From a virus, in the UHGV virus genome UHGV-0026213: 64,000 bases of DNA. One strand, written 5' to 3'. Positions 28,406 to 59,448 of the stretch are shown here, in pieces. How positions within the stretch are numbered: the first letter of the stretch is position 1; the number at the start of each line of letters is the position of its first letter. The notes beneath the pieces were generated by a model, which was not told where the DNA came from, did no database searches, and was given only the letters and a program-made list of their open reading frames with translations. The translations under genes and the position numbers were made by a program.

Positions 28406-31400
28406 TTAAGATGTAAACATAAGATTGAACTGGAGCTTATCGATATCGCGCGTTTGTGCTGGGTTAACCGCGTCGTACGTGGTTGCCACGTAGACCGTTA
28501 ATGTCCCGTCAGCAAACGAAGTTTTCACCGGTGGCGTAGTCCCTGTCTGTCCATCAGTTACAATGACGACAGGTTGAGACGGGAGTTGATGGAACTGACC
28601 CTTAACCGCTTTATACACCAAACCAGATTGCGCTGCTAACTCCGTGTCGGTATAGACGATAAACGGCGTGTCGATATCTGTCTGTTTAATGACAGTGTTC
28701 GTCTCAACGTCAATCAGCTGAACAGCACCGAACTTCGTACGGTAGCTATCGTATTCATTTTTTGGAATGACAAACGTAGCATGTACACGGACTTCTTCGG
28801 CGGGCTTAAATCCGGCGTGTTCTTTTTCCAGATAGCTGTTAGCAGTTAACGTTACTGTCTGTTCAGTCATCGTACCACCAGACTGGTTTAACCCGTAACG
28901 AACTTGGGTTATACCTGTCGGAGCCGCAAGCCTGATTTTTAGTCTACGGTTAGCGGTACCAGGATCGCCTGGCACTCTAACACGCAGACTCATCGCCAGA
29001 TATGCTTTCGCACCGGTAGTCGGTTTCGTATACGCACCCAACCACTTCATATTCGCGGTTGCCGCTTGACTGTTCTCAGAAGCAGTAGCCGCTGCAACGT
29101 TCGCAGCAACCGCTTTCTGCCAGAACTGGTCAGCACAGTTCTCATACGCTACTCTACCGATACTTTTATAACCTGCGTAGGTTTCCTGTATCGGTAGCTT
29201 GGGTCGTGTTGTAACCCCGTTCAACGCATTCCATCTCTGACCATCGACATACCCTGCACCATTGCTCGCAGATGCCGTGGGGGCTTTCAGCGGTTGGTTA
29301 ACCAAGGTTTGGAGTGGACCCGTTTTTCGATCGTACGCCGCTGCAACGTCGTGCTGATCTCTAACGGCAGCGTGTTCTTCTAATTCACGAACCCTGCCTA
29401 GTCGTTTCACTTTATCGATGTTGATAGCAACTATGCGCTTTTTATCGGTTGTGACTGTACCAACAAATAATCGCGAAGTCGTATCAGGCAGCTTTTCCAG
29501 GCCGATCTGATATTGAGCTTTCGAACCTACAAGAGCAGCATGAACATAGAACGTCTGGTTAGCATGGTTTTCTGGGAATTCATTGCTTAAATCCACCGAC
29601 CACGTCGGTAATGTATAGCTATTACTACCGAAATCTAACCTGACCTCTTCCGTCAAGTATAGAATCCAACCTTCCGCGGTTTCCACGCCTGCGATAATAA
29701 CTGCCTGCCCCGCTGTTGAGAATGTGGTATCATTAACGAACTCTTCGACTGTGTATGCGTTACCTGAACAGAAAACGCGGTCAGCTTTAGAGAAAATTCG
29801 TGCCATCTTGTCCCAATTACCCGCACCCATGTAACAACCAGATTCTGGGTTGTGGGCAGGAGCCATCTGACGCAACTGTGACTTACCGGGAACGCGAGTC
29901 CAACCCGACCCTGGGTCGAAGGTGTACTTCGCAGCGTAACCCAAAGCATTTAGGTCCCCGATATTCCGTAATGTCAGCGTATAAGGTAGCCATAGACCGA
30001 AGTTTACACCGTCGGCAGAAGCAAAAATTGGCTGGCCTACACGTCGCGTTTTATTACCCGCTTCTTCCCTCAGAGACTGATTACTTAAGCCGTAATCAAG
30101 GTCTAAGAACCAATCTACCAGCTTAAAGGTTGCAGAGTTAAAACGTAGATAACCGTTTTCTTTAGTCGGACTCACCATGAAATAATAGATGTCGAGAACT
30201 CGACGTCCGTTACTCAAGATTTTCATGCATGAGACTTGTAATAAGTCGAACTCACAAACAGTGTTAATGCCTAGCAACCATAGCGCAAACAACGCGTTGC
30301 CGCTTTGGTGTGCTGCGCTGATGCGCTCGTTCGCGTAACCGTTTGCTTGGCCAGATGGTGCACCATCGACAATCATCCTAATCATTTTCTGGCGATCCGC
30401 TTCCTCTAACGTCAGCCGTTCTGATGACAGGGCAAAGTTACCGTAGATGTTCCGATATGGAAAGGTTTCCGCTTTCGTCAAATACCAACCATTTAACTGA
30501 CCGTGACGCTCCTCTGGAGTCATGCAAGCAGCCATACAGCTTAACTGTTCGTAAAGCGTCGGATCAACTTCTCGACGGTTGTTGTTCGGGCCATAACCGC
30601 CGTATCCCGGAACGTCATAAGGTTTACTTGGGTCAACTTCTACTTCGATCGTATAGCGGTTACGTGGATTGGATAGCCAAACCTTATTCGAACCACCAAT
30701 ACCGACAGGATGAGAAAGACCAATGGTATAGATAGAACCACGACCTTTATCCCAAGCAAATGATCCTTCACCTGAGGTATTGTTCGGGTTATCGTAACGC
30801 AAATAATCAAAAAGCTCTTTGCCTTGCGTCCCTTTAATAGTAACGCTTGGCATCTGGTCCGCATCGTTAATCTGCCAGCAGGAAAGCATCATTCCTGTGC
30901 CGTTGGGTTTAGCATACGTCGCAAAACAACGATTATTTGCTATACCGCCACCCCACTTACGACTGGTTTCTACAGTTGAGCCATCCGCGAACGATAGTCT
31001 GGTAGTATCAACTTTAAGTGGGAATCTCTCGGCACCCTCTAACGTAACTCTGCCCGTTAACGTATCGATTGTGAAACTTGTTGACCATTGACGGAAATTA
31101 ATCGTCGAACCGTCGGCTGCCGCAAACCACACGGTGGGTACATGGTTCACACGAATCACGCTGTCGCGGACCGCACAAGCATGGCTACACTCTGGACCGT
31201 GAACAAAGCTGTGACCGATTGTCCATTTAGCCCGTGCCTCTGGCGGGTAATACGTAAAGAACTGACCAGTCTGCGACTCTTCGGTCTTCTGACCAATTCG
31301 TAAACAGAGGTTATCTCCGAATTGCCCCATTTCTCCGGTTAGGGTTACACGTTCAAATTCTAACTCAGTATTGGTAGTCAAATCGGCTTTACGTAAACGC

Positions 31401-33589: not shown

Positions 33590-33604
33590 CGTAAAGACTC
33601 CTAC

Positions 33605-33645
33605 TTTTAAATAAAATGGATACCCCTCCCCGTTACAGGGAGGGG
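33605..33645 (-). terminator. Minus-strand terminator between the 1402-aa and 1727-aa genes
   Basis: cccctccc-cgttaca-gggagggg hairpin with T-rich sequence on the minus-strand 3' side; a second hairpin at about 33649-33674. Confidence 0.6.
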
Positions 33646-33683
33646 TTACCTACGGACACACAACTGCCCGTAGGCAGCCTGTC

Positions 33684-36600
33684 CTAAGTACGATCCCCTA
33701 ACTGCTTCCCGTTAAGTTCTCGTTTCAGTACAGCCAAAATCCACTTCCACGCTTTACTCGTGATGTGGTACGGATTGCGTTTCTCCATTAAGAACTGACT
33801 TTCGCCGCTACGGAGTTCGAAGCTCTGCGCATTGAGTTGGTCTTGGCGAACACCGTTCTCGTCAGTGACATCTAACGAACAGGTAAAGTTAAGCTCGTAG
33901 CCTTCAGGATTATTACCCGGTGGTTCTAAGACAATATAAATATCCTGCCCTACACGTAGATCCTTTGGCGTAAGGGTAACTGCTTTACCTGTGTCGGCGC
34001 TGGTCGAAAGCGCAAACGGCACGCTATCAATAGCTGATACATACGCGTCCTTCCCAGCATCGCCGATAATCACCTTACCCGGCCAGTTACACTTCACCGT
34101 TCCTGTCACTTTTGCAATACGGTACTGCTGTTTATCAGTACCTTGTGCAAAGCGTAAAATGAGTTTATGCCGATACCGGTTTGCGGCAGCTTTGGATGTA
34201 CTCCACTCATTGTTCCAGGAGGTATGAAGTTCACCTTTCTTGGCCATCAAAGCACCACGAGACAGCTTACGTGGGAAGAATTGTGCCGGAAGTTGCCCAT
34301 CGTGGGAGATCGCTACACTCCCTTGTCCGGTTGGAAGTGCTATTGTTTCCGTAGGGCAATAATTTAACTCACTCACGTATGATGTAGGATCGATCAATTT
34401 CTGATAGTAATCACCGTCCTTACTGTCCGCTAACCAACCAACGGAAGAGTCCGTATACGATTCAAACAGTGAACGTAAATAGTGATACTTATCGATATCG
34501 ATGTTACCCGTTTTTGGATCGATCAGAGCATGGTTAATAGTGAGGAAACACTTCTCACTCAAACCATTAAACGCCAAACCCACACCGTCACCAGTAAAAT
34601 AGTCTACCAGGTCAAATGGAAGCGTCATTTCTATTTGTCGCAAGTTGATAGTCGTTGAACCAAACTGCGAAAAAGATAGCGCTAAACGAAGTACACGAGT
34701 ATTAACATTATAACGATAACGTATCATCCCACGCGGCGCGTGGTTCGCGGAGATCTTATCACCGTTTGCGCCCCACCCAATTAAATCGAGTATTTCAGCG
34801 TTTGTTACTTCACCGTTAAACAAAACGTCTTTAGTCGTGATTTCAACTGACGTTTCCCTTCCGGCATCCATTAACATCGAACCGTTATTCAACTCGAAGC
34901 TCTTGTGCCAAACTTCTGAAGTCGAGCCAGCACCTACACCCACCTTACAAGTTTTACTAGTAAGGTTAATACGCACATAACGGCGTCCCACTGTACCGCC
35001 CTGCGAGCTTGCACACAAAATAAGATCAGGTGCCGCAGACAGTGCCTTGGTCCCTGCAATGTCATCAACATCGAAAACGAATGAGCCTTCGAACGTTGGT
35101 GCGTTATTTTCCTTCGGGTTAAATGGTGTAAACCAACAATAAGGCATCGCGCCCTCGGTTGAGAAAATCAACTCTAAGTCAGATTTAACATTTAATCCGT
35201 GGGAATAAGAAAAAAGACCGCGACTTAAGGTACAAAGCGTACCACCACTTCCAGCACCTAACAATTTTCGATATATTAAGGCACGGGGTTCTGGGATAGC
35301 ACGGTTTAATAACGGCAACCGTGGGTTATCCGTTAACGTCCAATCTACAGAACTGAGTCCGTGTGCCTTACGAGTGCTAATGTGCTCACTAACCTCGGCA
35401 CTTTTCCCGAAATCAAATGTGGTTTCAAAACTCACGGTTTTATTCGAGTAGGATTCACCACCTGCAACAATATCAACGTAACCGATATAACCGCGCTCAG
35501 GATCGACTGCAATACTCTGAATTGGCTCAGTACGCGAATACAGAGAGCCTGTGAGCATGTTAACGTACAGATAATGACGAATCCCTACGTGTGTTGTAAC
35601 AAACTCTTGGAGAAGCTCTACGTGCGTTTCAGGCCCACTGAAATAAACGGGGTAGTCACCGTCGTAAATTTCGAATTGCACCGCTGCGGATTTAGCCGTG
35701 TCGCTACACTCAGCTTTAACCGCTACGGTGTAGTTTTCAACGTCCGCTGATGTTTCGTACACTGCAACGAGCGGAGACTGGCCTGTGGCTGCCTGGATAC
35801 CGTTAATGTAAACTGTAACCGGGCCACCCCCTGCGGCATAAACCCAAAGCTTCGGCTGGCGTGCCCTTACCCGCGTTTTTGCCAACACAGTAACAACTGA
35901 CTGGTCGCCCATCTGTGAGGCGGTTTTACCTACCGGAACAGATTGGAAACCCATTAGTGGTGGTTCTTCAATACCTGTCCAGTTAATGCCCTTACCAGCG
36001 CTCACTTTCCCCGTAGGCCAGGTCGTCTCAATTTGGTTGTTCGGTGAGAACCAGTTAAACATCGGCGTAGTTTGCAGGTCAATCGAACCTGTAACGGCGC
36101 TATCAGCTTTCGCGCCGTTCAGCAAATAGAAATACTTCAAATCTTGGACGGAGATTGCCGTACCCTGACTATTAAAGCGCCAGTCTGCGCCTTTTACCGC
36201 AGCGAAATCCGTTACCGACCCTTCTTTCGCGTTTGCAATCGCCGCAGCAACCACATCTAAACGCGCCGAAAGTTCTTTTAAGACGTTCGGCACCACTGCA
36301 CGGTTTTCAACCAAACCGTTCTGGTTAGTTGCGTAACGACCGATACCGTAAACGGTTTGCGAGGCTTTATAAATGCCTAGTTCCGACCAATCGTGGTGGT
36401 GACCTGCATCCGCTAAACCACTAAGCGCCGTATTTAACTCGGTAGACAACGGCTTGTCAACGTCTGCGGTGTTATCCGCTTGCCCTAACCCCAGATCAGC
36501 TTTCGTGATTGTCCTGGAGCCGTCATTCATCGGCTTACCGTTAATCATGGTCGTTTTAGCCACATACCCCGATAGGTCAGTTGAGTATGGTGCTAACGAA

Positions 36601-37892
36601 GCCGGTGTTGCAGCAACCCCAGTCGTTTCTGTACCTTTACCTGTTTTAAGTTTAGCGACGCCTTTTTCGGCGGTTGTCGCTTTTGTTGGGTCGATAGTCC
36701 CCACGATAGGGTCGGCGCGAGAACCTTTACCGGTAAAGCTAATCCCATTACGACCTTCAATGTACACCTTCGAGTCATCAGGGTCGCCACCGCCACCAGA
36801 ACCCGCATCTGGATCTTGTTGGTATTCCATCAACGCCGTGGTAGTCAGTAACGGGTTACCGTTCAGGGTGAGTTTGTTCATCCCTAAAGCATCGCCTGTT
36901 GACTCGATGCGTAATGTGTTTTTACCGGCACGCCAGTTGATATAACGTCCTGCACCCGTACCTTCCAGATGCCCTACCGCTAATACCACAGAACCGTTGG
37001 ATTTTAACGTAAAACCATCGTTGGCAAAAATGATTTCGGACTCACCGTTTTTCGAACGGAACTGTGCGCGGTTTCCTGACACCGTACAGTTAAACACGCC
37101 CCGCACTTCCGAAGAAATCCAGTGAGAGATATACGTATCGATAACCGACTGCGGTAAACGAAACGCTTTCAGCTCATCCGTCAGTGCTTTCAACTTTAAC
37201 CCGTACGCCATAAAGGTGTCGGGTGTTTTCAAGTTAACAGGATGCGCGTTAATCTGCGCGGATGTGGTTTCGTGCGGGTTCTTCGCTGCGATATGTGCTG
37301 GGTAATTAAATGCTTCGATTTCTTTACCCAACGCAGTCACTAACGCTTTAACTTCAGCTAATTTGTCTTTAATTAGCTGGTTAGCGTCGTCGGTTTTCAA
37401 TTCAATATCGTGAACTGCCGACGCTAAATATTTTTTGTTCAGCAAATCCGCCCAGGACGTTGCTGCTGGCGTCGCTGGATATAACGATGGTCTACCGTCT
37501 AATAACAGCCAGTCAGCACTGACTGGGTTATTCAAATATTTCACCAGTTCATCGAGAATATCAACAAACGGGTCGTAGAACGTACCGCCGAGCATTTGTC
37601 CTTCAAAGGTTACGATACCCTTGATGGATGGGTTGATAAGGTGTACCCCACAATACACGTTGGCTGCTACCGAGTCATCCAGTTCCGTCAGCTGATATTG
37701 CAGTTCGTAGTCCACCCCACGACTCAGTGGGGTGGTTGAACCTGGTTGTCTGACGACCAAATCTTCAAAGAACGGGCGGTGGTCTAAAATCACCACCCGA
37801 TCGTTGTTGTTCTCTGACCCGATGATACGCTCCTCTAAGAAGTGATTCTCGGCTTTCGTCCCCCGAGGATCGTAAGGATACGCTTTCATCAA
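33684..37892 (-). CDS. Giant tail fibre or tailspike-like structural protein (1402 aa)
   Basis: N-terminal HRPFF...GVDYELQY module. Confidence 0.65.
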   Translation of the reverse strand: MMKAYPYDPRGTKAENHFLEERIIGSENNNDRVVILDHRPFFEDLVVRQPGSTTPLSRGVDYELQYQLTELDDSVAANVYCGVHLINPSIKGIVTFEGQMLGGTFYDPFVDILDELVKYLNNPVSADWLLLDGRPSLYPATPAATSWADLLNKKYLASAVHDIELKTDDANQLIKDKLAEVKALVTALGKEIEAFNYPAHIAAKNPHETTSAQINAHPVNLKTPDTFMAYGLKLKALTDELKAFRLPQSVIDTYISHWISSEVRGVFNCTVSGNRAQFRSKNGESEIIFANDGFTLKSNGSVVLAVGHLEGTGAGRYINWRAGKNTLRIESTGDALGMNKLTLNGNPLLTTTALMEYQQDPDAGSGGGGDPDDSKVYIEGRNGISFTGKGSRADPIVGTIDPTKATTAEKGVAKLKTGKGTETTGVAATPASLAPYSTDLSGYVAKTTMINGKPMNDGSRTITKADLGLGQADNTADVDKPLSTELNTALSGLADAGHHHDWSELGIYKASQTVYGIGRYATNQNGLVENRAVVPNVLKELSARLDVVAAAIANAKEGSVTDFAAVKGADWRFNSQGTAISVQDLKYFYLLNGAKADSAVTGSIDLQTTPMFNWFSPNNQIETTWPTGKVSAGKGINWTGIEEPPLMGFQSVPVGKTASQMGDQSVVTVLAKTRVRARQPKLWVYAAGGGPVTVYINGIQAATGQSPLVAVYETSADVENYTVAVKAECSDTAKSAAVQFEIYDGDYPVYFSGPETHVELLQEFVTTHVGIRHYLYVNMLTGSLYSRTEPIQSIAVDPERGYIGYVDIVAGGESYSNKTVSFETTFDFGKSAEVSEHISTRKAHGLSSVDWTLTDNPRLPLLNRAIPEPRALIYRKLLGAGSGGTLCTLSRGLFSYSHGLNVKSDLELIFSTEGAMPYCWFTPFNPKENNAPTFEGSFVFDVDDIAGTKALSAAPDLILCASSQGGTVGRRYVRINLTSKTCKVGVGAGSTSEVWHKSFELNNGSMLMDAGRETSVEITTKDVLFNGEVTNAEILDLIGWGANGDKISANHAPRGMIRYRYNVNTRVLRLALSFSQFGSTTINLRQIEMTLPFDLVDYFTGDGVGLAFNGLSEKCFLTINHALIDPKTGNIDIDKYHYLRSLFESYTDSSVGWLADSKDGDYYQKLIDPTSYVSELNYCPTETIALPTGQGSVAISHDGQLPAQFFPRKLSRGALMAKKGELHTSWNNEWSTSKAAANRYRHKLILRFAQGTDKQQYRIAKVTGTVKCNWPGKVIIGDAGKDAYVSAIDSVPFALSTSADTGKAVTLTPKDLRVGQDIYIVLEPPGNNPEGYELNFTCSLDVTDENGVRQDQLNAQSFELRSGESQFLMEKRNPYHITSKAWKWILAVLKRELNGKQLGDRT

Positions 37893-37902
37893 AAAATTCT
37901 CC

Positions 37903-40900
37903 TTAATCGCGAATGATTACCGCCTGCACTTTATTGTTGGTGTCGATAAACGACATTACGCGCTCCTTGTTAAGATAAGGAGGTATCGGTAACGCAGCGT
38001 AATCCACCAGGTTGTTATTAAATTCAGTTGCCACTAACGCATTAAGCGTTTCGGGGTCTGAACTGACACCGGTCAATTCCATAACGCGCACACGATTTAA
38101 TGAGGAATAGTTGCTAATATAGTCTAACAACGTACCATAGACTTTATTCGCGGTTGCGCTATCTGCCGTAGAACGGATGTTGGCACGAACTTCATCCTCA
38201 TAAAGTCCCCCTAAACCGTAGTAAATAGGGGTATACGGATCGTTAACGATAGGTTCGATATTGAACCCTGTTAAACGGTCGGTTAATGGGATTTTCTGCG
38301 TAGTTCCCCCTGCCGCCGTACAACTTACATATTTGTCCGTCGCAGATAAATGCACCGCGACAGTATACGTAGTCCCCGCTAAGGTCAGTCTTGCACTAAA
38401 CGTTATTGCGTTGGTTGCACTACGGTTGTGGGTAAACGATACTTCAGGTTGTAATGAACTCCACGGTGCTGGCGTGACACGTTTCGTTGGTGTGAAACCC
38501 ACCACTACCGATTTCCCGCTACCGAAGTTCAAACCGAACCCTGCGTAACAATATTCACCGTTACTGTCGGTTAAACGATACCCGCGAGTGATAAGTAACG
38601 ACAACCGCATAAACTCGCCGTCGGTGTTTTTCCAACAACCTAAAACAGTTTCTAACACCGTGCCGGTTTTTGCGTTGCTTTCTGTTTCCCAACTGACTCG
38701 CATTCCTGCGTTCTTAAAAGCTGGGAACATGTTGTGGATAAACCCGTGTAGGTTATCGCTTACCCCTTTCGCGTCAAAAATCCACTTGGATGCGAGCTGG
38801 TCGTATTTCACCCCGTCTAAAGCTTTATACTGCCCACCGGCAACATAACGCCAATCTGCTTCACCGCGTACTACTGCCTGGAGTCCAGAAGCCCAGCAAG
38901 GCGCACCTACTGTTAAGTTAGCTAACCCAAGCGCTGCACGTGACGCGGAGCGCTGAATGTGTGCGTTGTCATCGGCTTTATGATCTTTCAGTTCACGGAA
39001 ATCGCCCAACCGTGTGACATTACGCATCTCCGTAACGAACACCTCAGAAATGTCGTTAACACCAATCAACCCTACACGCGTCATGGTATCCGTTTCAGCC
39101 TGACTGTAGCTGTCGTGGACAATATACTTCGCTTTGTTGTCAACAATATCAACAAAAATCCCTGCGTAGATTTCTGTATTCAATTTCGGAAAACGTTCAC
39201 TGACGTTAATCGTCATCAACGGAACGTCGTATGTTTCACCACCGATAAAATACGTTGAAGCTGGAAGCGTGACCAGAATTTTGTCTTTGACCGTAAGGTC
39301 TATTAAGTCGTTACCAGACTCACCAAAACGTATAATGTCAAGACGTGCCTCCGAGTCAACACCGCTGACAGCGCGCTCCAATTTTTCAATCTGGGATGTC
39401 TGCGCCATTACCACACTCCCATCGAGTGCTAAAGTCACATCATCCACATCCAGACCAAATTTAATCAGACCACGTTGCGCTGTGGTTGCGTTCCCTGTAC
39501 CAAAAGCGGTAAACGGGTGTTGGTGAACTTTAGGCGAGTATTTATCTAACTCCGCACGCTGTGCTGTAGAAATCGGTAAATCGGCATCGGGCGTATTCGC
39601 AACATTACCTAAACCAAAGGTAATCTTATCGATAGTAACCGAGCTGGTAAGTTGCATGTCGTTAATGTACGATTTAACTGCAACTAACTTACCGGTGAAC
39701 TCCGCATCGAGTTTTTCAATCAGTGCTGGCGTTGCTGCAAGGTTTTCAGCGGTACCGAACTCATCGGTCAACTGCCAAGCTGCCAGAGCTGTTGTATCGG
39801 TCGCGGTAGGAAGAATAAAGGTCGCTACGAACGGCGAGGCTTTTATCCCGCTACCGGTGATCGTAACCGTTGTTGTCGAACTTGCGTAGAATAAACCTGT
39901 GCCACCTGCGGTATTGCCTGGCAGATACGGGGCTACGGTGGTGGGGTCTAAGAGTTTTTTACCACGCCACAACAATCCTCGGTCATCGGGGTATAGCACA
40001 AGCTGGTTAGTACCTGCTTGGAACGTTACGGGGTTGTTACCCACGTTAACATCAGTTGAACCTTGGCCAATAAACTTGATGGATTTCGGATCAACAACAA
40101 ACTGGGCACCTAAACGTGTCTCGTCAACAACATCCGGTGCTTTCTTAATGGTAACCGTGTTACCTTTGTTTTGCGAACTAATGGTAACGGCGTCGGCAAC
40201 ATTATTGATCAGCGATTTAAAGTGGTGCTGATTCTCTAATGCTTCTAACGCAGCGTCCATGTTATCGAAGTTAATCCGACCGCTATACGTTTTACCGTTT
40301 ACGGTAATAACGACGTCAAACACGTTCCCTGTACGCTTCAGTTGAAAACGTAGCGTAAAATCCCCATCCGGTATTGCCGGATTAGGAGCTTGAGAAATAT
40401 AACGTACCGACGGTAACGGACTCCCGTAACCGTTCAATGTCAGACTGATAGTAAGGGTACCACCCCAGATTTGACCAGTAATCTCTACGAACTTACCGGA
40501 GTTACTACCCGGGTTTTCGTAGAAACGTAAACCAACCCTACCGACCGCTTCATTACCAGACGCTGTTTTACGTCCAGTAACAATAAAGTCAATATCTTGC
40601 AGGTTGGCAGGCACTGCATTAAAGTTAGCAATGAAACCGCTTTTCGCTCCTGTATAACGAAGCGCGCCGTGATATCTGTGACCACTACTAACATAGCTTT
40701 CGCTAAAATAAGGACTCACGTATTTCGACATCGAGACCGGATCAACTTCCGTCGTGAACGAAGTAAAACCCGGAAGTGTGGTAATCGTGCCGTTAACGTT
40801 CTTGCTCGGCGATTCACGAAGCAGTTTTTTCTGTGCGGTTAACGTTGCTTGTGTTGGGTACTTAGCATTAACATAATCCGTTAACTGCTGTTTCGTCTTC

Positions 40901-42225
40901 CCGTAAGCTAACGCGGCATCTGTCGCAATACCATTCAGCTCTAACGCACGGATCGGACCCCACGTATCGGTGTGCGGGTTGTCCTTACGTGTAACGTGTT
41001 CGTGTGCAGGCGCGTTACGATACAGCTGCTCAACTAACTGATGGTATTTGACTATTAACTGGTAAACATCGTTATCGATGTCAGGTTCTGGTGCGCCGGG
41101 TAAAGAACGAATTTGAATATAATCGTTTTCGGCCGCATACCAGTTTAAATTAATGTTCGTTTTAAACTTCAACCATTTAGCAACATCCGTTTTCGAATAC
41201 CCTGCCGAGAACTCATCAGGCGGCGTATCGACATTGAATGTGTAATCCATGGTCTGTTTATTTGTTTTTACTACGATGACGTAAACACCGTTTCCGGGTT
41301 GACGGGTTACACTAAAATCGATATCGTTTTTTAACTCATCGTCAGTTAAACCGTTGATTAACGTATAATCGTAGTTTGTTGAACCGCTACCAATAGCGAC
41401 CGTTAAGACCAGTGAGATTTTGCGCTGTTTTAGCTGCAGCCGTAGAATACTTGCACCGCCGTTAGCATAACAGAGCATCCAATCGATCTGTTCGTTTGGA
41501 TTCAATTTCGTCATGTCTGGCAGAATAGCAGGAATTATGTGTTTCACTGACAGGGCGTAGTCGTTAAAGGTTGCAGTTTTATAACTCAAGCTATAACGAT
41601 GACGGGCAGTGTTGTAGGTGAAGCCACCTTTATTGTCGTATACGGCATACTGCTCGGAAGTGATAACCTTGCTATTAGCACGGTATTCTAAATCCAGGGT
41701 ATTGCGTGCGATGGGGTTAAGCCGACTCACGACTTCCCCTAACGAATCGCCTAATCCAGCAATAGCCTGCATTAATTCCAGTTCACCTTTCCAATTCTCC
41801 CAATCGAACTGAATATCGACCGGCGGAAAGTAAACGTCCCCGATGACGGTGTCCCACTGACACGCAGACGGGTATTTATCTTTATTGAGTTCGCGTTCTG
41901 CGCTAATCTGTTGTTGGGTAGCCTGACCACAACCAACGGCGTGGTAATCTACCGTAAAATTCGATTTGTATTTGTCATTAACAATCCAAATCATCCCGTG
42001 AATGAGATAGGCTGTGCGCAACATACCGGTCTCGTACGGGTGTGTAATAACGTAATCGTCGCCTAAGGTCAGTGTTTTGCCGCCGCTCTTGACCACCAGG
42101 GATGTGGTGAAAAAAGGGGCGTGGGCAGGTACCAACATTCGGTATTTCGTACCAATGACGGCGACCGCTTCACCGGTTATTTTATTCCCCGGTTTTTTGA
42201 AGTGTGGGTCTAAGACGACAGCCAT
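37903..42225 (-). CDS. Giant tail fibre or tailspike-like structural protein (1440 aa)
   Basis: N-terminal HAPFF...GDDYVI module; first gene of the minus-strand structural operon. Confidence 0.65.
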   Translation of the reverse strand: MAVVLDPHFKKPGNKITGEAVAVIGTKYRMLVPAHAPFFTTSLVVKSGGKTLTLGDDYVITHPYETGMLRTAYLIHGMIWIVNDKYKSNFTVDYHAVGCGQATQQQISAERELNKDKYPSACQWDTVIGDVYFPPVDIQFDWENWKGELELMQAIAGLGDSLGEVVSRLNPIARNTLDLEYRANSKVITSEQYAVYDNKGGFTYNTARHRYSLSYKTATFNDYALSVKHIIPAILPDMTKLNPNEQIDWMLCYANGGASILRLQLKQRKISLVLTVAIGSGSTNYDYTLINGLTDDELKNDIDFSVTRQPGNGVYVIVVKTNKQTMDYTFNVDTPPDEFSAGYSKTDVAKWLKFKTNINLNWYAAENDYIQIRSLPGAPEPDIDNDVYQLIVKYHQLVEQLYRNAPAHEHVTRKDNPHTDTWGPIRALELNGIATDAALAYGKTKQQLTDYVNAKYPTQATLTAQKKLLRESPSKNVNGTITTLPGFTSFTTEVDPVSMSKYVSPYFSESYVSSGHRYHGALRYTGAKSGFIANFNAVPANLQDIDFIVTGRKTASGNEAVGRVGLRFYENPGSNSGKFVEITGQIWGGTLTISLTLNGYGSPLPSVRYISQAPNPAIPDGDFTLRFQLKRTGNVFDVVITVNGKTYSGRINFDNMDAALEALENQHHFKSLINNVADAVTISSQNKGNTVTIKKAPDVVDETRLGAQFVVDPKSIKFIGQGSTDVNVGNNPVTFQAGTNQLVLYPDDRGLLWRGKKLLDPTTVAPYLPGNTAGGTGLFYASSTTTVTITGSGIKASPFVATFILPTATDTTALAAWQLTDEFGTAENLAATPALIEKLDAEFTGKLVAVKSYINDMQLTSSVTIDKITFGLGNVANTPDADLPISTAQRAELDKYSPKVHQHPFTAFGTGNATTAQRGLIKFGLDVDDVTLALDGSVVMAQTSQIEKLERAVSGVDSEARLDIIRFGESGNDLIDLTVKDKILVTLPASTYFIGGETYDVPLMTINVSERFPKLNTEIYAGIFVDIVDNKAKYIVHDSYSQAETDTMTRVGLIGVNDISEVFVTEMRNVTRLGDFRELKDHKADDNAHIQRSASRAALGLANLTVGAPCWASGLQAVVRGEADWRYVAGGQYKALDGVKYDQLASKWIFDAKGVSDNLHGFIHNMFPAFKNAGMRVSWETESNAKTGTVLETVLGCWKNTDGEFMRLSLLITRGYRLTDSNGEYCYAGFGLNFGSGKSVVVGFTPTKRVTPAPWSSLQPEVSFTHNRSATNAITFSARLTLAGTTYTVAVHLSATDKYVSCTAAGGTTQKIPLTDRLTGFNIEPIVNDPYTPIYYGLGGLYEDEVRANIRSTADSATANKVYGTLLDYISNYSSLNRVRVMELTGVSSDPETLNALVATEFNNNLVDYAALPIPPYLNKERVMSFIDTNNKVQAVIIRD

Positions 42226-52887: not shown

Positions 52888-52892
52888 CGTTT

Positions 52893-52935
52893 GGGAGAAC
52901 CTTCGGGTTCTCCCTTTCTTTATTTTTTTCTTTTT
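52893..52935 (+). terminator. Intrinsic terminator
   Basis: gggagaacc-ttcg-ggttctccc followed by tttctttatttttttcttttt. Confidence 0.8.
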
Positions 52936-52965
52936 ACACCACACTCCGTCTTTATGGAGGTGGGT

Positions 52966-55470
52966 ATGCTAAAAGTTGAACGCATTATACTCAAAGGTTT
53001 TACGGGGATGGGGTTACATGAAATTGAAACCTTCGATTTCACTATCCAGTCTCCGACAACAATTATCCTGGGTGGGAACGGCTGCGGGAAAACCAGTCTA
53101 CTGTCTGTGTTCTTACCCTTAGCACCGGCTAAAACAGAATTTAGGGACGGCGGTTCTTACACAAACTACTGTTTAGTTGGCGATCAACGCTATCGTTTCA
53201 AAGTTGCTCGTAAAGGCAACTCATTGGTTTGCGATATTGAGAACTTGACTACGGGGGCAAAGATCGTCGAGCAAGGTAATGCGAAAGTCTACAACTCCCG
53301 TGTTGAAGAAATCACAGGTATTACGAAAGAGATTAAAGAATTATTAAATGGTGAGGTGTTGTTAACCGATGCGGGAACTGAATTACGCCGCAAATGGTTT
53401 TACCGTTTAAGTACCTCTGACCTCACTTACGCGTTAGGGTTTTATCAACGTTTACGTAAAAACCTTACTGCCTTAAATGGGGGTATTGAAATCACCAGCC
53501 GTAAAATCGCCGAATTGCGGACGCGTGTTATTGAGAACGAGGAAGAACGGCAGCAGTTGGCGACGAGATTAAAAGGTTTGGAATCGGATTTACGTGAACT
53601 GAACCGAGAAATCGAACAGTTGCCAGGATTAAATCGTGCCGTCACCATCGAAACAATCCAAGCGTTATTAAACAGCTTGGGCCCAACCATCGACGCAATA
53701 TTACAACATCGTGGTGGACTGCCTACTGATGAACAGATACTGGCCGCGCGACAAAACGAAGCGACGGCCCGCGAAGCTGTCGTGTCTACTGAAACAGAGG
53801 TATCGATGTTGAATAAAGACTTGTCGTTATTGATGGATGAGTCGACACGACAGGACTACCTGATGCGGAATCACGAAGGTCTCAAGAATACGCTGGCACG
53901 TTTACGTGAGTTACTTACCAAATGGGACACTGAACATCTCTTTCCGGGTCTATTTAACGATAACGTCAATTTAGACCAACTTCGTGCGGCTACCGACGCG
54001 CGTGTTTGGGGACAACGGTTAGGAACAACGCTGGACGCAATTCATTCGACCGAAAAACTCAATGTTTTGGAAGAACGGCTTCTGGTGATGGATCAAAAAA
54101 CCGCCGGGTTGCGGGATAGACTCCAGCGAGTGGAGAACGTTTTACAGAATTTAAATCACGAACGTAACCACTACTTAGAAACAGCGGAAGTGGATTGTCC
54201 GCAGTGTCGGTTTAAGTTTCGACCAGGCGTTACGCGTTCTTTGCCTGAACTTGAGTCTTCGATTCGTGGACAGCAACAGCAGCGCACGGAACTGCAAACG
54301 CAGTTAGAGACCTTATTACGCGATCGTGTTGAATTAGAATCTGATGTAACTTATATGCGGCAGGTTCGTGAGATTGTACTGACGTATTCAAAGGACCCGG
54401 TATTGAGCATGTTCTTTAAGCGTTTGCAAGAACGTAACGTTTTCACAGAATCACGCGAACAGTTCGGGAGTCTATGCGCAGCGTTTGACAGCGAGTTGTA
54501 CTCTGCTATTGAGTACCATGAAACCCGTCAACGGTTAGTGAAGGCGGAAAAAGAATGGCAGGATGCCGTGGCGACCGTTGGTAACGTCGATGGTGCTTTA
54601 CAACAGAAAATCGCCTTCCAACAGTCACGATTAGGTAAAGCCACAGAAATGCTCTCAATGCGTCGTAGAGAGCACGAACTGGCTAACACGACACTTACCT
54701 ATCTGGTGAATGTTAAACGTGCTGTAGATGATTTCAGTGCGTTATTCGAACGGTTAGAGAGTGATGTTAAGGTTACGTTGACAAATACGGTCGTCGAGGA
54801 ACTCTTACGTGCACGAGAAGGGAAGCTGGATGCTTTTACAACCGCACGCGAACGTTATCGTCAGATGGAAAATGAATTGAATCAGCTCAACAGTTTGGAA
54901 CGCGAACTTGCTGACTTACAAGCCCAGCAGTTCAATAACAAACTGATGATTCAAGCCTTCTCTCCAGAAAAGGGTGTACTTAGAAAGTATTTTTACAACG
55001 CTATCGTTAGAATCACAGAGTTAATGACGCGTTATATCGAACAAGTCTGGACGTACCCCATGCGCGTTATGCCTTGTGACCTCACTGACGGTGATTTGGA
55101 TTATACTTTTCCTGTCCAGCTAAAAACGCATCCTGAGCCTGTTCCTGACGTGCGTAAAGGGTCTAAGGCGCAGCGTGCGATATTTAATCTGATGTTCAGG
55201 CTGACTGCGTACAAAGCGCTGATGTTGCATCAGTTTCCATTGCTTTTGGATGAGCCTTCGGAAGGCATGGATGAGGAGCACCGTAACAACCTGGTCGGCT
55301 TTATTAAAACGTTAGCAAACTCGGGAGAATTTTCTCAACTGTTGGTAGTCTCCCACGAAGCCGAGGTTCATTCTAAACTTAATGAAGCATCGTACTGTGT
55401 CATCGAACCGGAAGGGGTGACATTGCCTGCGGTGTATAACGAAGGAGTAAAAATTGTTTATGCAAACTGA
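52966..55470 (+). CDS. Rad50/SbcC-like SMC-family ATPase with central zinc hook (CPQC)
   Basis: Walker A GGNGCGKTS near the N-terminus, long coiled-coil middle, CPQC in the centre, C-terminal LLLDEPSEGMDEEH Walker B/D-loop. Start set to ATG at 52966 (GGAGG RBS) downstream of the terminator; the listed ORF begins at 52891. Confidence 0.65.
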   Translation: MLKVERIILKGFTGMGLHEIETFDFTIQSPTTIILGGNGCGKTSLLSVFLPLAPAKTEFRDGGSYTNYCLVGDQRYRFKVARKGNSLVCDIENLTTGAKIVEQGNAKVYNSRVEEITGITKEIKELLNGEVLLTDAGTELRRKWFYRLSTSDLTYALGFYQRLRKNLTALNGGIEITSRKIAELRTRVIENEEERQQLATRLKGLESDLRELNREIEQLPGLNRAVTIETIQALLNSLGPTIDAILQHRGGLPTDEQILAARQNEATAREAVVSTETEVSMLNKDLSLLMDESTRQDYLMRNHEGLKNTLARLRELLTKWDTEHLFPGLFNDNVNLDQLRAATDARVWGQRLGTTLDAIHSTEKLNVLEERLLVMDQKTAGLRDRLQRVENVLQNLNHERNHYLETAEVDCPQCRFKFRPGVTRSLPELESSIRGQQQQRTELQTQLETLLRDRVELESDVTYMRQVREIVLTYSKDPVLSMFFKRLQERNVFTESREQFGSLCAAFDSELYSAIEYHETRQRLVKAEKEWQDAVATVGNVDGALQQKIAFQQSRLGKATEMLSMRRREHELANTTLTYLVNVKRAVDDFSALFERLESDVKVTLTNTVVEELLRAREGKLDAFTTARERYRQMENELNQLNSLERELADLQAQQFNNKLMIQAFSPEKGVLRKYFYNAIVRITELMTRYIEQVWTYPMRVMPCDLTDGDLDYTFPVQLKTHPEPVPDVRKGSKAQRAIFNLMFRLTAYKALMLHQFPLLLDEPSEGMDEEHRNNLVGFIKTLANSGEFSQLLVVSHEAEVHSKLNEASYCVIEPEGVTLPAVYNEGVKIVYAN

Positions 55471-55639
55471 TTGGTTCCGTCGTATTGTGGATGCGGCAGG
55501 GTTTGGCTTCATGTCCATTCTAGCGGTTCTTTATGTCATGTTTTGTGTGGTGATGATTTTATGGGTAGTTTCATCTTATCTGATTAAACTATCGTGGGGT
55601 TCAATTTGGCGTCAACGCGAATGCGAATGGCGGAATTAG
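55460..55639 (+). CDS. Small membrane protein
   Basis: Hydrophobic segment GFGFMSILAVLYVMFCVVMILWVVSSYLI; GGAG RBS before ATG at about 55460. Confidence 0.5.
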   Translation: MQTDWFRRIVDAAGFGFMSILAVLYVMFCVVMILWVVSSYLIKLSWGSIWRQRECEWRN

Positions 55640-55649
55640 GAGAGGGAAT

Positions 55650-55748
55650 ATGGTTGTAGGGGTTCTGTTAACACTTGGCTCGTTGTGGTTAATTGGTAAA
55701 GGTTTAAACTTGCTGATTAAACGTCACCGTTGGGCGTTTGAAGATTAA
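55650..55748 (+). CDS. Small membrane peptide (32 aa)
   Basis: MVVGVLLTLGSLWLIGKGLNLLIKRHRWAFED; AGGAGAGGG RBS. Found by reading; below the ORF-track length cutoff. Confidence 0.35.
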   Translation: MVVGVLLTLGSLWLIGKGLNLLIKRHRWAFED

Positions 55749-55805
55749 CCACCCAAATAATCCAGAAGATACCCTCCGGTGTGAGGGTATTGACAGGAGC
55801 AGAAA

Positions 55806-55934
55806 ATGACCACGATAAACGCTACGAATGTAGCGATATCCGCACTATACGACGCGGAACTTTCATGGGGTGGATTGATAATCACCACAGCCATATTAGC
55901 CGCTGCGGCTTTCGTCATCGCGCGTTGGTTTTAA
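55806..55934 (+). CDS. Small membrane peptide (42 aa)
   Basis: MTTINATNVAISALYDAELSWGGLIITTAILAAAAFVIARWF; CAGGAG RBS. Found by reading. Confidence 0.35.
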   Translation: MTTINATNVAISALYDAELSWGGLIITTAILAAAAFVIARWF

Positions 55935-55965
55935 TTTTACTTTTTTGCGTCTCTAAGGTTTGCAA

Positions 55966-56439
55966 ATGGAAATTTATTTGTTGAACGCATCTTCTAAAGT
56001 CGGTGAGCGTCAAGCTGCCGATTTACTCAAACTACACTACCGTTACTTAGACCACCAGGCCACGTTACTGAAAATCAAAATGTCGGTGCCGAAGTTAAAT
56101 GCGCGACAGCTGATCGAAGGTAACTGCATAGTTCTGGTGTATCAGGATGATGTCGCGGTAGGATACTGTAGTTATCGGAATCGTAACGGTTCACTTAAGA
56201 TACGTTCGGTATACGTGCTCCCAGACTATCGTCAACGGGGTGTAATGAAAGAGATTTTCAAAGCAATTGCAGCTATGCGAAATGTAAAGAAGCAAAAGAG
56301 TATTTCATCCGACGCGGCTATCAGGCGGTTTACTCACGCGATCGTGAGTGGGTCGATTTTAGCAAAACATTCTAAAAACAATAAAGCTCTCTTGGCGTAC
56401 CTCACTATGAGTGTGAGAAATTTACGTCAGGAGAGCTAA
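55966..56439 (+). CDS. GNAT-family acetyltransferase-like protein
   Basis: VYVLPDYRQRGVMKEIFKAI resembles GNAT motif A (R/Q-x-x-G-x-G/A). Confidence 0.45.
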   Translation: MEIYLLNASSKVGERQAADLLKLHYRYLDHQATLLKIKMSVPKLNARQLIEGNCIVLVYQDDVAVGYCSYRNRNGSLKIRSVYVLPDYRQRGVMKEIFKAIAAMRNVKKQKSISSDAAIRRFTHAIVSGSILAKHSKNNKALLAYLTMSVRNLRQES

Positions 56440-56441
56440 TT

Positions 56442-56687
56442 ATGTTAAAATCGTGCGGAGTGGGTGGTTTGGATACGAGTATTTGTTGGAAGGAATACGA
56501 ACGTGCGAAAGCGTTCTTACAACATCCCAATGTGGGGACAATAGGTAAGGTCTGTTTCGGCAAACCTTCACTGACGGCCTGTATCCAAGGGGCTTTAGGG
56601 ACGTTGCCACCCGAATCACATTTCGAGCCTGAGGAGAATATGAATGTTCACAGAGAACCCATCAATTTACGGCATACCGTTGAATGA
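56442..56687 (+). CDS. Hypothetical protein
   Basis: 81-aa ORF. Confidence 0.45.
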   Translation: MLKSCGVGGLDTSICWKEYERAKAFLQHPNVGTIGKVCFGKPSLTACIQGALGTLPPESHFEPEENMNVHREPINLRHTVE

Positions 56688-57012
56688 AATTGATATTCTG
56701 CAAATTTGTTATCAGTGTGGCGACTTCGGTAAGACGCAGGTAACGCCGTTAGTTAATCTTTTAGGTTACTTGCCTGAAATCGAGCTACCTTTTGTTAAAC
56801 CTAGCTTAGTTCGTCGCGCATCGTGTCGTGAAGCTTATTTGCTCTGGAAACACAATATTTCAGTAGAGAAGGTCTGGGACCGTATGAACGATCATCAGTT
56901 CCGTGAGCAGGTCGTGCACACGCTTAACTTGGCACTGACTATGCAACGCCTGGGCTTACAACACGAGGGTTTAGAAGCGGCGGTCAAGCAATGGATTACG
57001 AAAAATCGATAA
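56644..57012 (+). CDS. Hypothetical protein
   Basis: 122-aa ORF, GAGGAG RBS. Confidence 0.45.
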   Translation: MFTENPSIYGIPLNEIDILQICYQCGDFGKTQVTPLVNLLGYLPEIELPFVKPSLVRRASCREAYLLWKHNISVEKVWDRMNDHQFREQVVHTLNLALTMQRLGLQHEGLEAAVKQWITKNR

Positions 57013-57036
57013 TGGGTAAAACATATATCGCTATAC

Positions 57037-57597
57037 TTGTCGAGCTATCAATCGGCGGTACACGTTTTAATACTACACATCAACTCCGGGCGTTTCGTTA
57101 TGTTAACGGTACGTAAAGAATCTGAAATTGGTAACGATCTTTTTAATGCGCCCGAAGACTATAAAGTCGTTACCATTAACTGCGTAGGAGCGATGGGACG
57201 TGGCATTGCACTCGCGTGTCGTGAACGCTACCCCAACCTTTATCAAGATTACCGTAAGCGGTGTCGTGAAGACGAAATTAAGATTGGAAGCGTTTACGTT
57301 TACTCTGACGAAAAGTGTATCTTGCTCCCCACGAAAACACATTGGCGTTTAAAATCCCAGGTTTCTTATGTTACTGCGGGCATTACCGCACTAGCGGATT
57401 GTGCTGAGGATCTGGATACCAGCGTTGCTATCCCTCCATTGGGAATGGCAAACGGGTGGTTAGATTCCTGGGAAAGACAAGAAATCTTTTTGTGGCTTTA
57501 CAAAAAACTTGAACCGAGGAGGCAACGCTACACGTTATACTTACCTGTTAAGTTGTATCAAGAAGCAGAGTCATTAATTCCAAACTCTTTTAAATAG
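57037..57597 (+). CDS. Macro-domain-like protein (possible ADP-ribose processing enzyme); start uncertain
   Basis: VVTINCVGAMGRGIALACRERYP resembles the N-x-V-N-x-x-G-x-M-G-x-G-I-A signature of TARG1/DarG-type macro domains. Confidence 0.45.
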   Translation: MSSYQSAVHVLILHINSGRFVMLTVRKESEIGNDLFNAPEDYKVVTINCVGAMGRGIALACRERYPNLYQDYRKRCREDEIKIGSVYVYSDEKCILLPTKTHWRLKSQVSYVTAGITALADCAEDLDTSVAIPPLGMANGWLDSWERQEIFLWLYKKLEPRRQRYTLYLPVKLYQEAESLIPNSFK

Positions 57598-57697: not shown

Positions 57698-58396
57698 ATG
57701 TTTCGTATCTTCTTTCTTTTACTGGTAACACTTTTCGCGTTTAACGCACAGGCGTCAACGTCAACGCCACATTCTAAGCATCAGCGTGAGTTTGCACAAA
57801 TCCAACATCGGTTCGAAAAAGTCAGCCCGTTAATTGTGGAAATCTCACGAAAGCAGGGCGTTGATCCCAAGCTGATGATTACGCTGATTTATCGTGAATC
57901 GCGTTTTGATCCCAAGGCTTACAACAAAAGCTCACGAGCACATAGCCTGGTACAGATGCTTCCAAGTACCAAGCGTAATCTGCTAAAGCTTTATGGAAAA
58001 GAATTAGGTCTTAGTCAGAACGCTGATTTGTATAATCCGCGTAATGCTGTTTTGCTGGCTACCGCGTATGTTAAACATCTTGAGAAGGGGTTAACCAAAC
58101 GACTCAAACGCAAGCCCACCATGGCTGAAATTGCGTTAGCTTACCACTGGGGTGAAAGTGGCGCTCACACGCGAATCAAAAGCAAATCTCGAGCAGCACA
58201 ACGAGAAATGGCAGGCTTTATGAAAGACGCCGCGTTCTATAGCGCGAAAATCGATGTGCCTGTTGTTGTGGGCTCGGCCCCACGTCAGCTTGCGTTTGCG
58301 AAGAAAACACCACGTCAGATTCAACTGGCGGAAGTTAGTAGAATTTGGGATACGATAAACACGAGTTTTCCAATCAATAGAGGAGTTACCCTTTGA
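57698..58396 (+). CDS. Secreted lytic transglycosylase (SLT-domain) protein
   Basis: Signal peptide MFRIFFLLLVTLFAFNAQA; ESRFDPKA and SLVQM resemble SLT catalytic-region motifs. Start set to ATG at 57698 (GGAG RBS); the listed ORF begins at 57671. Confidence 0.6.
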   Translation: MFRIFFLLLVTLFAFNAQASTSTPHSKHQREFAQIQHRFEKVSPLIVEISRKQGVDPKLMITLIYRESRFDPKAYNKSSRAHSLVQMLPSTKRNLLKLYGKELGLSQNADLYNPRNAVLLATAYVKHLEKGLTKRLKRKPTMAEIALAYHWGESGAHTRIKSKSRAAQREMAGFMKDAAFYSAKIDVPVVVGSAPRQLAFAKKTPRQIQLAEVSRIWDTINTSFPINRGVTL

Positions 58397-58968: not shown

Positions 58969-59448
58969 ATGATAAAGTTCATTTGGCGTTATCCAACGCG
59001 TTTTTGGTTTGTGGTACTTGAATTGTTTATGGTCCTTGTGGCGATTACTTTTGTCGAAGCGCCCGCCTCGCAGTTGGCTATTTTCTGCCTTTTCGTGACT
59101 GTCCCTGTATGGGTGATTGCGAAGGCTATTAAGTTCGTCATGGTGTGTTGGGCGAATTATACCTGTCCGTATAAACCTAAACAAATCATGAACTGGCTGA
59201 TGTATATTGAAGAACGTTTACCGGCGCAGCATAAATTACTGGGCTGGTCGTCAATGTTGGATATTGCGCTAGAAACCAATGCAAAGTTTCCCGGTGCGAA
59301 AAACCCTTATTTGTTGATGGCAGTAATTGTTGCACAACAAAAACTGGTAGGTGACCGTTGGTTGCCAGAAGAAGCGAAAGCGTATATCCGTAAACATCCA
59401 AAAGCTTTTTACTCGGTAGGACAATGGCGTAACTTGCCATTATTTTAA
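58969..59448 (+). CDS. Integral membrane protein
   Basis: Two or three hydrophobic helices in the N-terminal 70 aa. Confidence 0.55.
   Translation: MIKFIWRYPTRFWFVVLELFMVLVAITFVEAPASQLAIFCLFVTVPVWVIAKAIKFVMVCWANYTCPYKPKQIMNWLMYIEERLPAQHKLLGWSSMLDIALETNAKFPGAKNPYLLMAVIVAQQKLVGDRWLPEEAKAYIRKHPKAFYSVGQWRNLPLF

Follow-up and report, generated by a model that had tools for sequence, protein, structure and literature searches.

Downstream of an SMC/SbcC-like ATPase gene, the viral genome UHGV-0026213 carries a block of mostly small genes, all co-directional on the plus strand, which raises the question of whether they act together against host defences or merely travel together. We analysed a 64,000-nucleotide (nt) stretch of this genome (hereafter the window), in which the block comprises four small hydrophobic open reading frames (ORFs; p61, p32, p42 and p34), a GNAT-like acetyltransferase gene, genes for an 81-amino-acid (aa) protein resembling elongation factor EF-Tu (u81) and a 122-aa protein (u122), and a macrodomain gene followed by a lytic transglycosylase gene. 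An initial annotation, made from the letters alone, had proposed a counter-defence islet in which the macrodomain could reverse ADP-ribosylation by DarT-like toxins and the acetyltransferase could modify host or phage targets; each ORF that it named is present on the plus strand and conserved in relatives. We consider it likely that the macrodomain gene is an orthologue of AdfM (anti-DarT factor macro) and that the other genes are independent passengers of a syntenic block; the macrodomain gene is the only one of them with an assignable function.

The macrodomain gene (57100–57597, plus strand) encodes a 165-aa, stand-alone DarG2-type macrodomain, a predicted DNA ADP-ribosyl glycohydrolase. 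Its ORF, which includes the segment VVTINCVGAMGRGIALACRERYP already pointed out in the initial annotation, scores 26.5 bits against the Pfam Macro family PF01661, above the gathering threshold of 22. Whereas this part of the earlier description stood, its start did not: the 33 aligned homologues measure 158–174 aa and the nearest ones (88–95% identical) all have 165 aa and begin with MLT, so that the gene most likely starts at the ATG at 57100, and the TTG at 57037 was rejected.

Sequence, profile and fold comparisons all led to the antitoxin DarG. In phmmer searches of the Protein Data Bank (PDB), the best solved relatives were the DarG macrodomains of M. tuberculosis (5M3I, E 2.6e-25) and T. 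aquaticus (5M31/5M3E, E 2.6e-20), with a Thermosipho DarTG fusion also among them. The PADLOC DarG profile (E 1.4e-36) and the NCBIfam model antitoxin_DarG (E 1.5e-35, 123.1 bits, below its equivalog cut-off of 250 bits) matched over profile positions 7–152 of 329 and 7–155 of 338 only; since just the macrodomain half of these profiles is covered, the protein is an orphan enzymatic domain and not a full antitoxin. An AlphaFold2 model built with 33 homologues (predicted local distance difference test, pLDDT, 93.2; predicted template modelling score, pTM, 0.89) retrieved the DarG macrodomains 5m3i, 5m3e and 5m31 as top Foldseek matches in the PDB (TM score 0.76–0.84, root-mean-square deviation (rmsd) 2.0–2.4 Å); the top four were all DarG or DarTG proteins (rmsd 2.0–3.0 Å), followed by SCO6735 and TARG1. 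In an alignment of phage homologues, DarG and TARG1, residues M32, G33, G35, A37, T78 and K79 are invariant and N27 is nearly so, and the MGxGxA motif, T78-K79 and PPLG are also invariant in alignment with DarG, TARG1 and gp104 of phage PhiKZ. N27 and K79 align with the active-site pairs N23/K78 of PhiKZ gp104 and N22/K80 of T. aquaticus DarG, the catalytic Asn and Lys identified in PMC13309987. The protein is 40% identical to PhiKZ gp104 (E 4e-30) and 61.6% identical over 159 aa to gp217 of Erwinia phage Asesino, which occupies the same syntenic slot, and on these grounds we file it as an AdfM orthologue.

AdfM was named by Morgan et al. (Cell Rep 2026, PMC13309987) for a chimallivirus macrodomain protein. 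PhiKZ AdfM (gp104) removes DarT2-installed ADP-ribose from a TNTC oligonucleotide, neutralises DarT2 toxicity and is required for PhiKZ replication on DarTG2-bearing P. aeruginosa, and the AdfMs of PhiKZ, PhiPA3 and Asesino (gp217) localise to the phage nucleus (PMC13309987). By analogy, we infer enzymatic activity, nuclear localisation and protection against DarTG2 for the window's protein. Host DarT2 would ADP-ribosylate thymidines in single-stranded phage DNA at TNTC motifs and thereby block replication and packaging; the AdfM gathered in the phage nucleus would then hydrolyse the ADP-ribose–thymidine bond through its conserved Asn/Lys active site and so restore the phage DNA. Because it has no C-terminal DarT-binding domain of the DarG kind, it would act enzymatically on the product of DarT2 only, not by binding the toxin. 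The suggestion that the macrodomain reverses DarT-type ADP-ribosylation is strongly supported by this homology, given a protein of DarG type by sequence, profile and predicted fold and orthologous to AdfM; the idea was right for the macrodomain, yet it has already been demonstrated and published for the AdfM family.

The known AdfMs (PhiKZ gp104, PhiPA3 gp108, Goslar gp83 and Asesino gp217) are likewise stand-alone DarG2-like macrodomains of ~160 aa from phages of the chimallivirus group, and Asesino gp217 has the same genomic position as the window's gene, between small unknown genes and the SLT endolysin. The window's protein differs in its origin, a ~225-kb lineage whose nearest relatives come from Salmonella assemblies and metagenomes, and in that its nuclear import and activity are expected from homology. 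With DarG of DarTG2 (T. aquaticus and M. tuberculosis; 5M31, 5M3E, 5M3I; Jankevicius et al. 2016, PMC5179494) it shares the macrodomain subclass, the fold and the active-site residues, and the same chemistry, removal of ADP-ribose from thymidine in single-stranded DNA, is predicted for it. In contrast to DarG, which belongs to a bacterial toxin–antitoxin locus, it is phage-encoded, and its 165 aa compare with a profile of ~330 aa that includes the DarT-binding domain. There is no adjacent darT: the gene is flanked by the 122-aa unknown, the 34-aa ORF and the transglycosylase gene, and PADLOC gave no DarT match among p61, u81, u122, the SMC-like ATPase, u169 and u159 (p32, p42, p34 and the transglycosylase being outside that scan). 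AdfA (T-even gp61.2), AdfB (ICP1 Gp145) and AdfN (T4 gp30.3, NADAR) have the same strategic role of countering DarT. Unlike AdfM, AdfA and AdfB do not undo the modification but bind the toxin, whereas AdfN, also an orphan antitoxin-like glycohydrolase, is a NADAR-fold protein that acts specifically on guanine-linked ADP-ribose (DarTG1) and has no activity against DarTG2.

Several points weigh against this assignment of the block. The AdfM experiments were all performed on homologues, and identity to the assayed PhiKZ enzyme is only 40%; the window's protein reads PPLGMANGW where DarG has PPLGxGNGG (G to A and G to W), a variant conserved throughout the SPN3US-like clade; and neither chimallin nor PicA was seen within the 64-kb window. 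As for the passengers, the deletion described below in the GNAT gene could be an assembly artefact common to re-assemblies of the same reads, and the truncated GNAT might keep some non-catalytic role.

In tblastn searches, AdfM-like genes occurred in 292 phage records, many of them with Bacillus, Streptomyces or Rhodococcus hosts, which suggests many carriers outside this jumbo-phage group. Orphan DarG-type macrodomains are widespread in phages by this count, and the window's gene extends AdfM counter-defence to a Salmonella-associated jumbo-phage lineage. These findings matter for the choice of jumbo phages in therapy against enterobacteria that carry DarTG2.

A megablast search with the region in 50,697 phage records gave no match, and blastn found only ~65–68% DNA similarity. 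At the protein level and in a low-stringency DNA search, the region proved collinear with Salmonella phages of the SPN3US type and with Erwinia jumbo phages like Asesino and Machina, in a common order of SMC-like ATPase, three to five small ORFs, acetyltransferase, small unknowns, macrodomain protein and transglycosylase. The contigs with the nearest macrodomain proteins (88–95% identical) are 160–226 kb long and come from Salmonella assemblies and metagenomes, and a 224,967-bp contig in ENA carries a GNAT allele identical to that of the window. Judged by these sequence comparisons, the window derives from a ~225-kb member of the SPN3US/Asesino supergroup of jumbo phages. Its block is collinear with those of SPN3US and of Asesino, a nucleus-forming phage, and from this relatedness the phage carrying it is presumably nucleus-forming as well.

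The acetyltransferase of the block has been disrupted. Its gene (55966–56439, plus strand; alternative start 55960) scores 32.7 bits against PF00583, above the gathering threshold of 20.7, so that both profile assignments of the initial annotation, macrodomain and GNAT, were borne out; what had been read as a GNAT-like enzyme is, however, a frameshifted allele, native over its first ~104 aa and out of frame over its last ~53 aa. The PF00583 match spans residues 53–106, corresponding to profile positions 31–88 of 116 only, and matches to PF00583, PF13508 and PF13673 are limited to residues ~50–112. Homologues that are 86–99% identical over the first two-thirds are intact, have 147 aa and end in a different C-terminus. 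DNA alignment with the relatives L005 (nearly identical; from the 99%-identical intact lineage) and L006 (~80%) revealed a clean 34-nt gap in the window (junction 56273|56274), and the segment DEVFGEIVTGM is missing from the window's copy in the protein alignment. Three-frame translation recovered, at 56274–56375 on the plus strand, an out-of-frame remnant of the native C-terminus, YAKCKEAKEYFIRRGYQAVYSRDREWVDFSKTF*, identical in amino-acid sequence to the C-terminus of the intact relative P0049. Since this C-terminus is still readable and unchanged, the deletion is recent. The deleted allele was found on at least four contigs (NCBI, Logan and ENA), which may be re-assemblies of overlapping data.

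An AlphaFold2 model of the intact relative P0049 (pLDDT 91.3) has canonical GNAT topology, with β5 at residues 109–115 followed by α4, β6 and β7. The deletion takes out β5 and frameshifts α4–β7, leaving the window's copy short of the complete β1–β7 fold with its β4/β5 acetyl-CoA cleft; with β5 lost and the remainder scrambled the cleft cannot form, and on the evidence of this model the GNAT of this phage is very probably inactive. The proposal that it modifies host or phage targets thus finds no support in this phage, where the 34-nt deletion destroys the C-terminal third of the fold. The intact model retrieved only generic GNATs with Foldseek (10–18% identity, E 1e-7 to 1e-9; N-terminal acetyltransferases, PaiA, ArsN and others) and NCBIfam gave only a sub-threshold ArsN2 match, so that no specific substrate is assignable. 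The pyrophosphate-binding loop of motif A (Q/R-x-x-G-x-G/A) appears degenerate across the family, reading RQRGVM in the window and close relatives and RRRKTM or RRRKVM in SPN3US-type members.

This GNAT family is confined to 49 phage records, all SPN3US/Erwinia-type jumbo phages. The SPN3US-clade members (SEGD1 gp196, AMR59843.1; SPN3US YP_009153485.1) are orthologous to the window's copy over residues 1–103 (~40% identity) and lie in the same position, between small ORFs and the EF-Tu-like gene; they differ from it in that the window's copy carries the 34-nt deletion and frameshift and has no β5–β7. Iyer et al. (2021) related AMR59843.1 to ribosomal-protein GNATs, possibly aimed at the translation apparatus. 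The SPN3US GNAT that has been assayed for spermidine acetylation (PMC9992855) is a different gene, YP_009153389, and was set aside.

Directly downstream of the GNAT gene, in the window as in six of six related phages whose annotation was inspected, lies the gene for the 81-aa protein (56442–56687, plus strand), which resembles EF-Tu residues ~4–37, that is, the N-terminal tail, strand β1, a degenerate P-loop and the start of helix A. NCBIfam EF-Tu models match its residues 17–54 (E 3e-4 to 1.5e-3), and BLASTP against E. coli EF-Tu gave 18 identities in 37 positions. A profile of five family members searched against the PDB returned EF-Tu in 59 of the 60 matches listed (E 3.8e-7 to ~2e-4), the remaining one being an eIF2 subunit (E 0.047). 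Members from Erwinia phages carry HVNVGTIGHVDH, identical to EF-Tu residues 11–22, and the annotation in several records is 'putative elongation factor Tu'. The family was found in 48 phage records, of SPN3US/Erwinia-type jumbo phages, and the window's gene has a ratio of nonsynonymous to synonymous differences per site (pN/pS) of 0.19. Among 1.84 billion representatives searched with HMMER there were only five true homologues and no informative domain fusion; a sixth match, P0077, was rejected as a tandem-repeat artefact.

With the N-terminus of EF-Tu (elf18 epitope, strand β1, P-loop and start of helix A) the family shares HxNVGTIGxV and the helix pattern that follows. The likeness is limited to ~35 residues, and two parts of the 81-aa protein, a leader of 16 residues and the conserved tail CIxxALGTLP, have no counterpart in EF-Tu. 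The P-loop GxxxxGK[ST] of EF-Tu is replaced by GKVCFGKP in the window and by GHVDHSRS/T in Erwinia phage members, and none of the members, of 66–109 aa, has a complete G domain; having lost the P-loop Lys-Ser/Thr and being this short, the protein is not a GTPase. Its sequence points either to a conserved mimic of the EF-Tu N-terminus or to an exapted piece of it. Both Lit and the caspase-like protease of type IV Thoeris cleave EF-Tu, and Avs7 co-opts it; by analogy, a decoy or adaptor role of the 81-aa protein is conceivable; our literature search found no report of a phage EF-Tu mimic. The next gene (56644–57012, plus strand), whose start overlaps the end of the 81-aa gene, encodes a conserved 122-aa protein assigned to the unnamed PHROG 11720 (E 1.2e-30) and 42–45% identical to homologues in SPN3US, Asesino and SPAsTU; it had no match in Pfam, NCBIfam or PADLOC, nor did its family profile in the PDB.

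That the whole block forms a co-functional counter-defence islet, with genes that cooperate or each disarm a different host defence, seems unlikely to us. Its AdfM member is a bona fide counter-defence gene, and GNAT anti-defence proteins exist, such as AcrVA5. The block also varies in the manner typical of accessory regions: between the SMC and macrodomain genes, related phages carry three to five small ORFs, and ChrisDB, Huxley and SPN3US have different genes between the EF-Tu-like and macrodomain genes. Furthermore, the EF-Tu-like protein could serve as a decoy, since Lit, type IV Thoeris and Avs7 are known to target EF-Tu or to use it as a cofactor. The region is indeed somewhat plastic, but plasticity alone does not make a functional unit. 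None of the neighbours scanned with PADLOC gave an anti-defence-related match, the membrane peptides showed no tie to defence, the GNAT was dispensable enough to be lost in this phage, and AdfM-like genes occur in 292 phage records as against 49 for the GNAT and 48 for the EF-Tu-like gene. In PhiKZ, moreover, the neighbours of the AdfM gene are entirely different: in a 40-kb region around gp104 they proved unrelated and no other protein of the cluster was found. As only the macrodomain gene is common to the two regions, a conserved macrodomain–GNAT operon was rejected. Shared ancestry within one clade explains the association of these genes; the order that the initial annotation had taken for an islet is the ordinary conserved synteny of the SPN3US/Asesino clade.

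A second version of joint action centres on translation and is, in our judgement, improbable too. The GNAT and the EF-Tu-like micro-protein would form a translation-directed module and, with AdfM and the membrane micro-proteins, a multi-target counter-defence region. Such a reading builds on the adjacency of the GNAT and 81-aa genes in the phages inspected and on their confinement to the same ~49 jumbo-phage records. By imitating the N-terminal strand and helix of EF-Tu, the 81-aa protein could either divert host defences directed at EF-Tu, whether proteases of the Lit or caspase type or sensors that depend on EF-Tu (for example Avs7), or steer the acetyltransferase to EF-Tu or the ribosome. 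If this were true, the natural GNAT knock-out of this lineage would offer a ready-made genetic contrast. Together, the knock-out and the protein resembling the EF-Tu N-terminus provide leads into the interaction of the phage with the host translation apparatus.

Of the small hydrophobic ORFs, p61 (55454–55639, plus strand; 61 aa from a TTG, 59 aa from the ATG at 55460) overlaps the SMC stop codon and has one long hydrophobic segment (Kyte-Doolittle 17-residue maximum 2.95); it matches PHROG 16515 (E 9.4e-5) and is conserved in L005 and L006, including the motif WGSIW.QRECEWR, with a ratio of nonsynonymous to synonymous substitution rates (dN/dS) of 0.35 against 1.0–1.3 in the other frames. p32 (55650–55748, plus strand; 32 aa), with an N-terminal hydrophobic helix (maximum 1.79) and a basic C-terminus, follows a GGAG Shine-Dalgarno sequence, matches PHROG 13448 (E 2.5e-11) and shares 55% identity with Asesino (tblastn, E 7e-8); its dN/dS against L006 is 0.30. 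p42 (55806–55934, plus strand; 42 aa), which has a C-terminal hydrophobic helix (maximum 2.45) and an AGGAG Shine-Dalgarno sequence upstream, is 64% identical to its L006 counterpart in both amino acids and nucleotides, with a dN/dS of 0.12, and is weakly similar to small ORFs at the same position in SPN3US and SPAsTU. Between p32 and p42, a hairpin with a 9-bp stem (55769–55790, plus strand; –16.7 kcal/mol, z –2.8) may act as a terminator or mRNA-stability element; at the same spot in L006 a different sequence also folds as a hairpin, followed by UGUUUU.

The hydrophobic segments of these three proteins all exceed the usual membrane threshold, SPN3US, SPAsTU and Asesino have weakly similar ORFs at corresponding positions, and against L006 their reading frames are kept, with dN/dS ~0.6–3 in the other two frames. 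Pfam gave no match for p61, p32 or p42, nor did NCBIfam and PADLOC for p61, the only small ORF scanned with them. A fourth such ORF, p34 (57012–57116, plus strand; 34 aa, MGKTYIAILVELSIGG...), was missed by the initial annotation. It was called as a gene in L005 and L011 and is conserved in L006 (MSKTYIAILVELAIGGTRF), with a pN/pS of 0.22 against L006, where the other frames give 0.93 and 3.0. It overlaps both neighbouring genes, at its start the stop codon of the 122-aa gene (TAATG) and at its end the AdfM start, which suggests that it is translationally coupled into AdfM; the AdfM gene has no obvious Shine-Dalgarno sequence, which is compatible with such coupling. The three short hydrophobic ORFs proposed earlier (59, 32 and 42 aa) are therefore real, each with its hydrophobic stretch, conserved frame and low dN/dS, and judging from these substitution patterns all four micro-proteins are encoded by genuine genes under purifying selection; they probably insert in the inner membrane.

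Downstream of the block, the lytic transglycosylase gene (57698–58396, plus strand, with the start called in L011) has a Pfam SLT match (E 8.8e-15), is annotated as endolysin or transglycosylase in relatives and probably encodes the endolysin. The N-terminus of the protein, MFRIFFLLLVTLFAFNAQA, is signal-peptide-like or signal-anchor-release (SAR)-like, a feature that points to export through the Sec system or by signal-anchor release. Past this gene and that of a 169-aa protein, positions 58969–59448 encode a 159-aa protein with two or three N-terminal hydrophobic segments.

As single-pass membrane proteins encoded on the same strand upstream of this transglycosylase, the micro-proteins could be its lysis partners (holin, antiholin or spanin-like), acting 2 kb away, and an endolysin with a signal-peptide-like N-terminus would need membrane regulators. 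We nonetheless regard a lysis role as quite improbable: six other genes separate the small ORFs from the endolysin, Pfam and PHROG searches gave no holin or spanin family match, no lipobox is present, and we found no support in the literature, where our search likewise returned none for SPN3US lysis genes. The multi-transmembrane product of 58969–59448, just downstream of the endolysin, is a better-placed holin candidate.

For the macrodomain itself, a substrate other than DarT2-modified DNA has to be weighed. TARG1, the next structural class after DarG in the Foldseek ranking, acts on proteins and on O-acetyl-ADP-ribose. Although this ranking, the database labels of the family ('phosphatase' for PHROG 335, 'Appr-1-p processing protein' in Erwinia phage records) and the proposal of Iyer et al. 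(2021) that Macro domains of jumbo phages degrade soluble ADP-ribose derivatives would fit ADP-ribose-1''-phosphate, O-acetyl-ADP-ribose, ADP-ribosylated proteins or RNA, or soluble ADP-ribose-derived immune signals as substrates, we hold this to be very unlikely, for the nearest folds are DarG macrodomains, structures of ADP-ribose-1''-phosphate phosphatases are only marginally similar in the phmmer search (E 0.018–0.048, against 1e-25 for DarG), and the assayed orthologue acts on ADP-ribose linked to thymidine in DNA, the need for it being specific to DarTG2 hosts. The labels 'phosphatase' and 'Appr-1-p processing protein' should become AdfM.

The upstream boundary of the block is the 859-aa SMC/SbcC-like ATPase (52891–55470, plus strand), which is context and stands outside the AdfM function. 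It matches Pfam SMC_N below the gathering threshold (E 3.7e-8; 33.5 bits against 40) as well as Rad50/SMC-related NCBIfam models; its identity is 69.6% with gp207 of Asesino and 57% with the SMC protein of SPN3US. It also matches the PADLOC model of Lamassu LmuB over its full length (E 2.3e-18), a similarity that is probably due to common SMC/Rad50 ancestry and not to a role in defence. The SbcC-like gp165 of PhiKZ is listed as core genome (PMC12571901).

Elsewhere in the window, a 663-aa protein (6745–8736), considered as a chimallin candidate and rejected, is strongly similar to 9-O-acetyl-sialic acid esterases of the NanS/NanS-p type (E 1e-120 to 3PT5), with a second domain that matches 6YP6. 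Its position near a gene for a 1395-aa tail fibre (188–4375) makes it a possible receptor-modifying enzyme. The minus strand encodes, at 22797–24119, a radical SAM domain protein of 440 aa (PHROG 1802, E 1e-114). Also on the minus strand, three consecutive giant genes (28406–42225; 1727, 1402 and 1440 aa) cross-match each other's PHROGs 7449, 8078 and 7557 ('virion structural protein') and, by this similarity, form a paralogous family of very large virion proteins.

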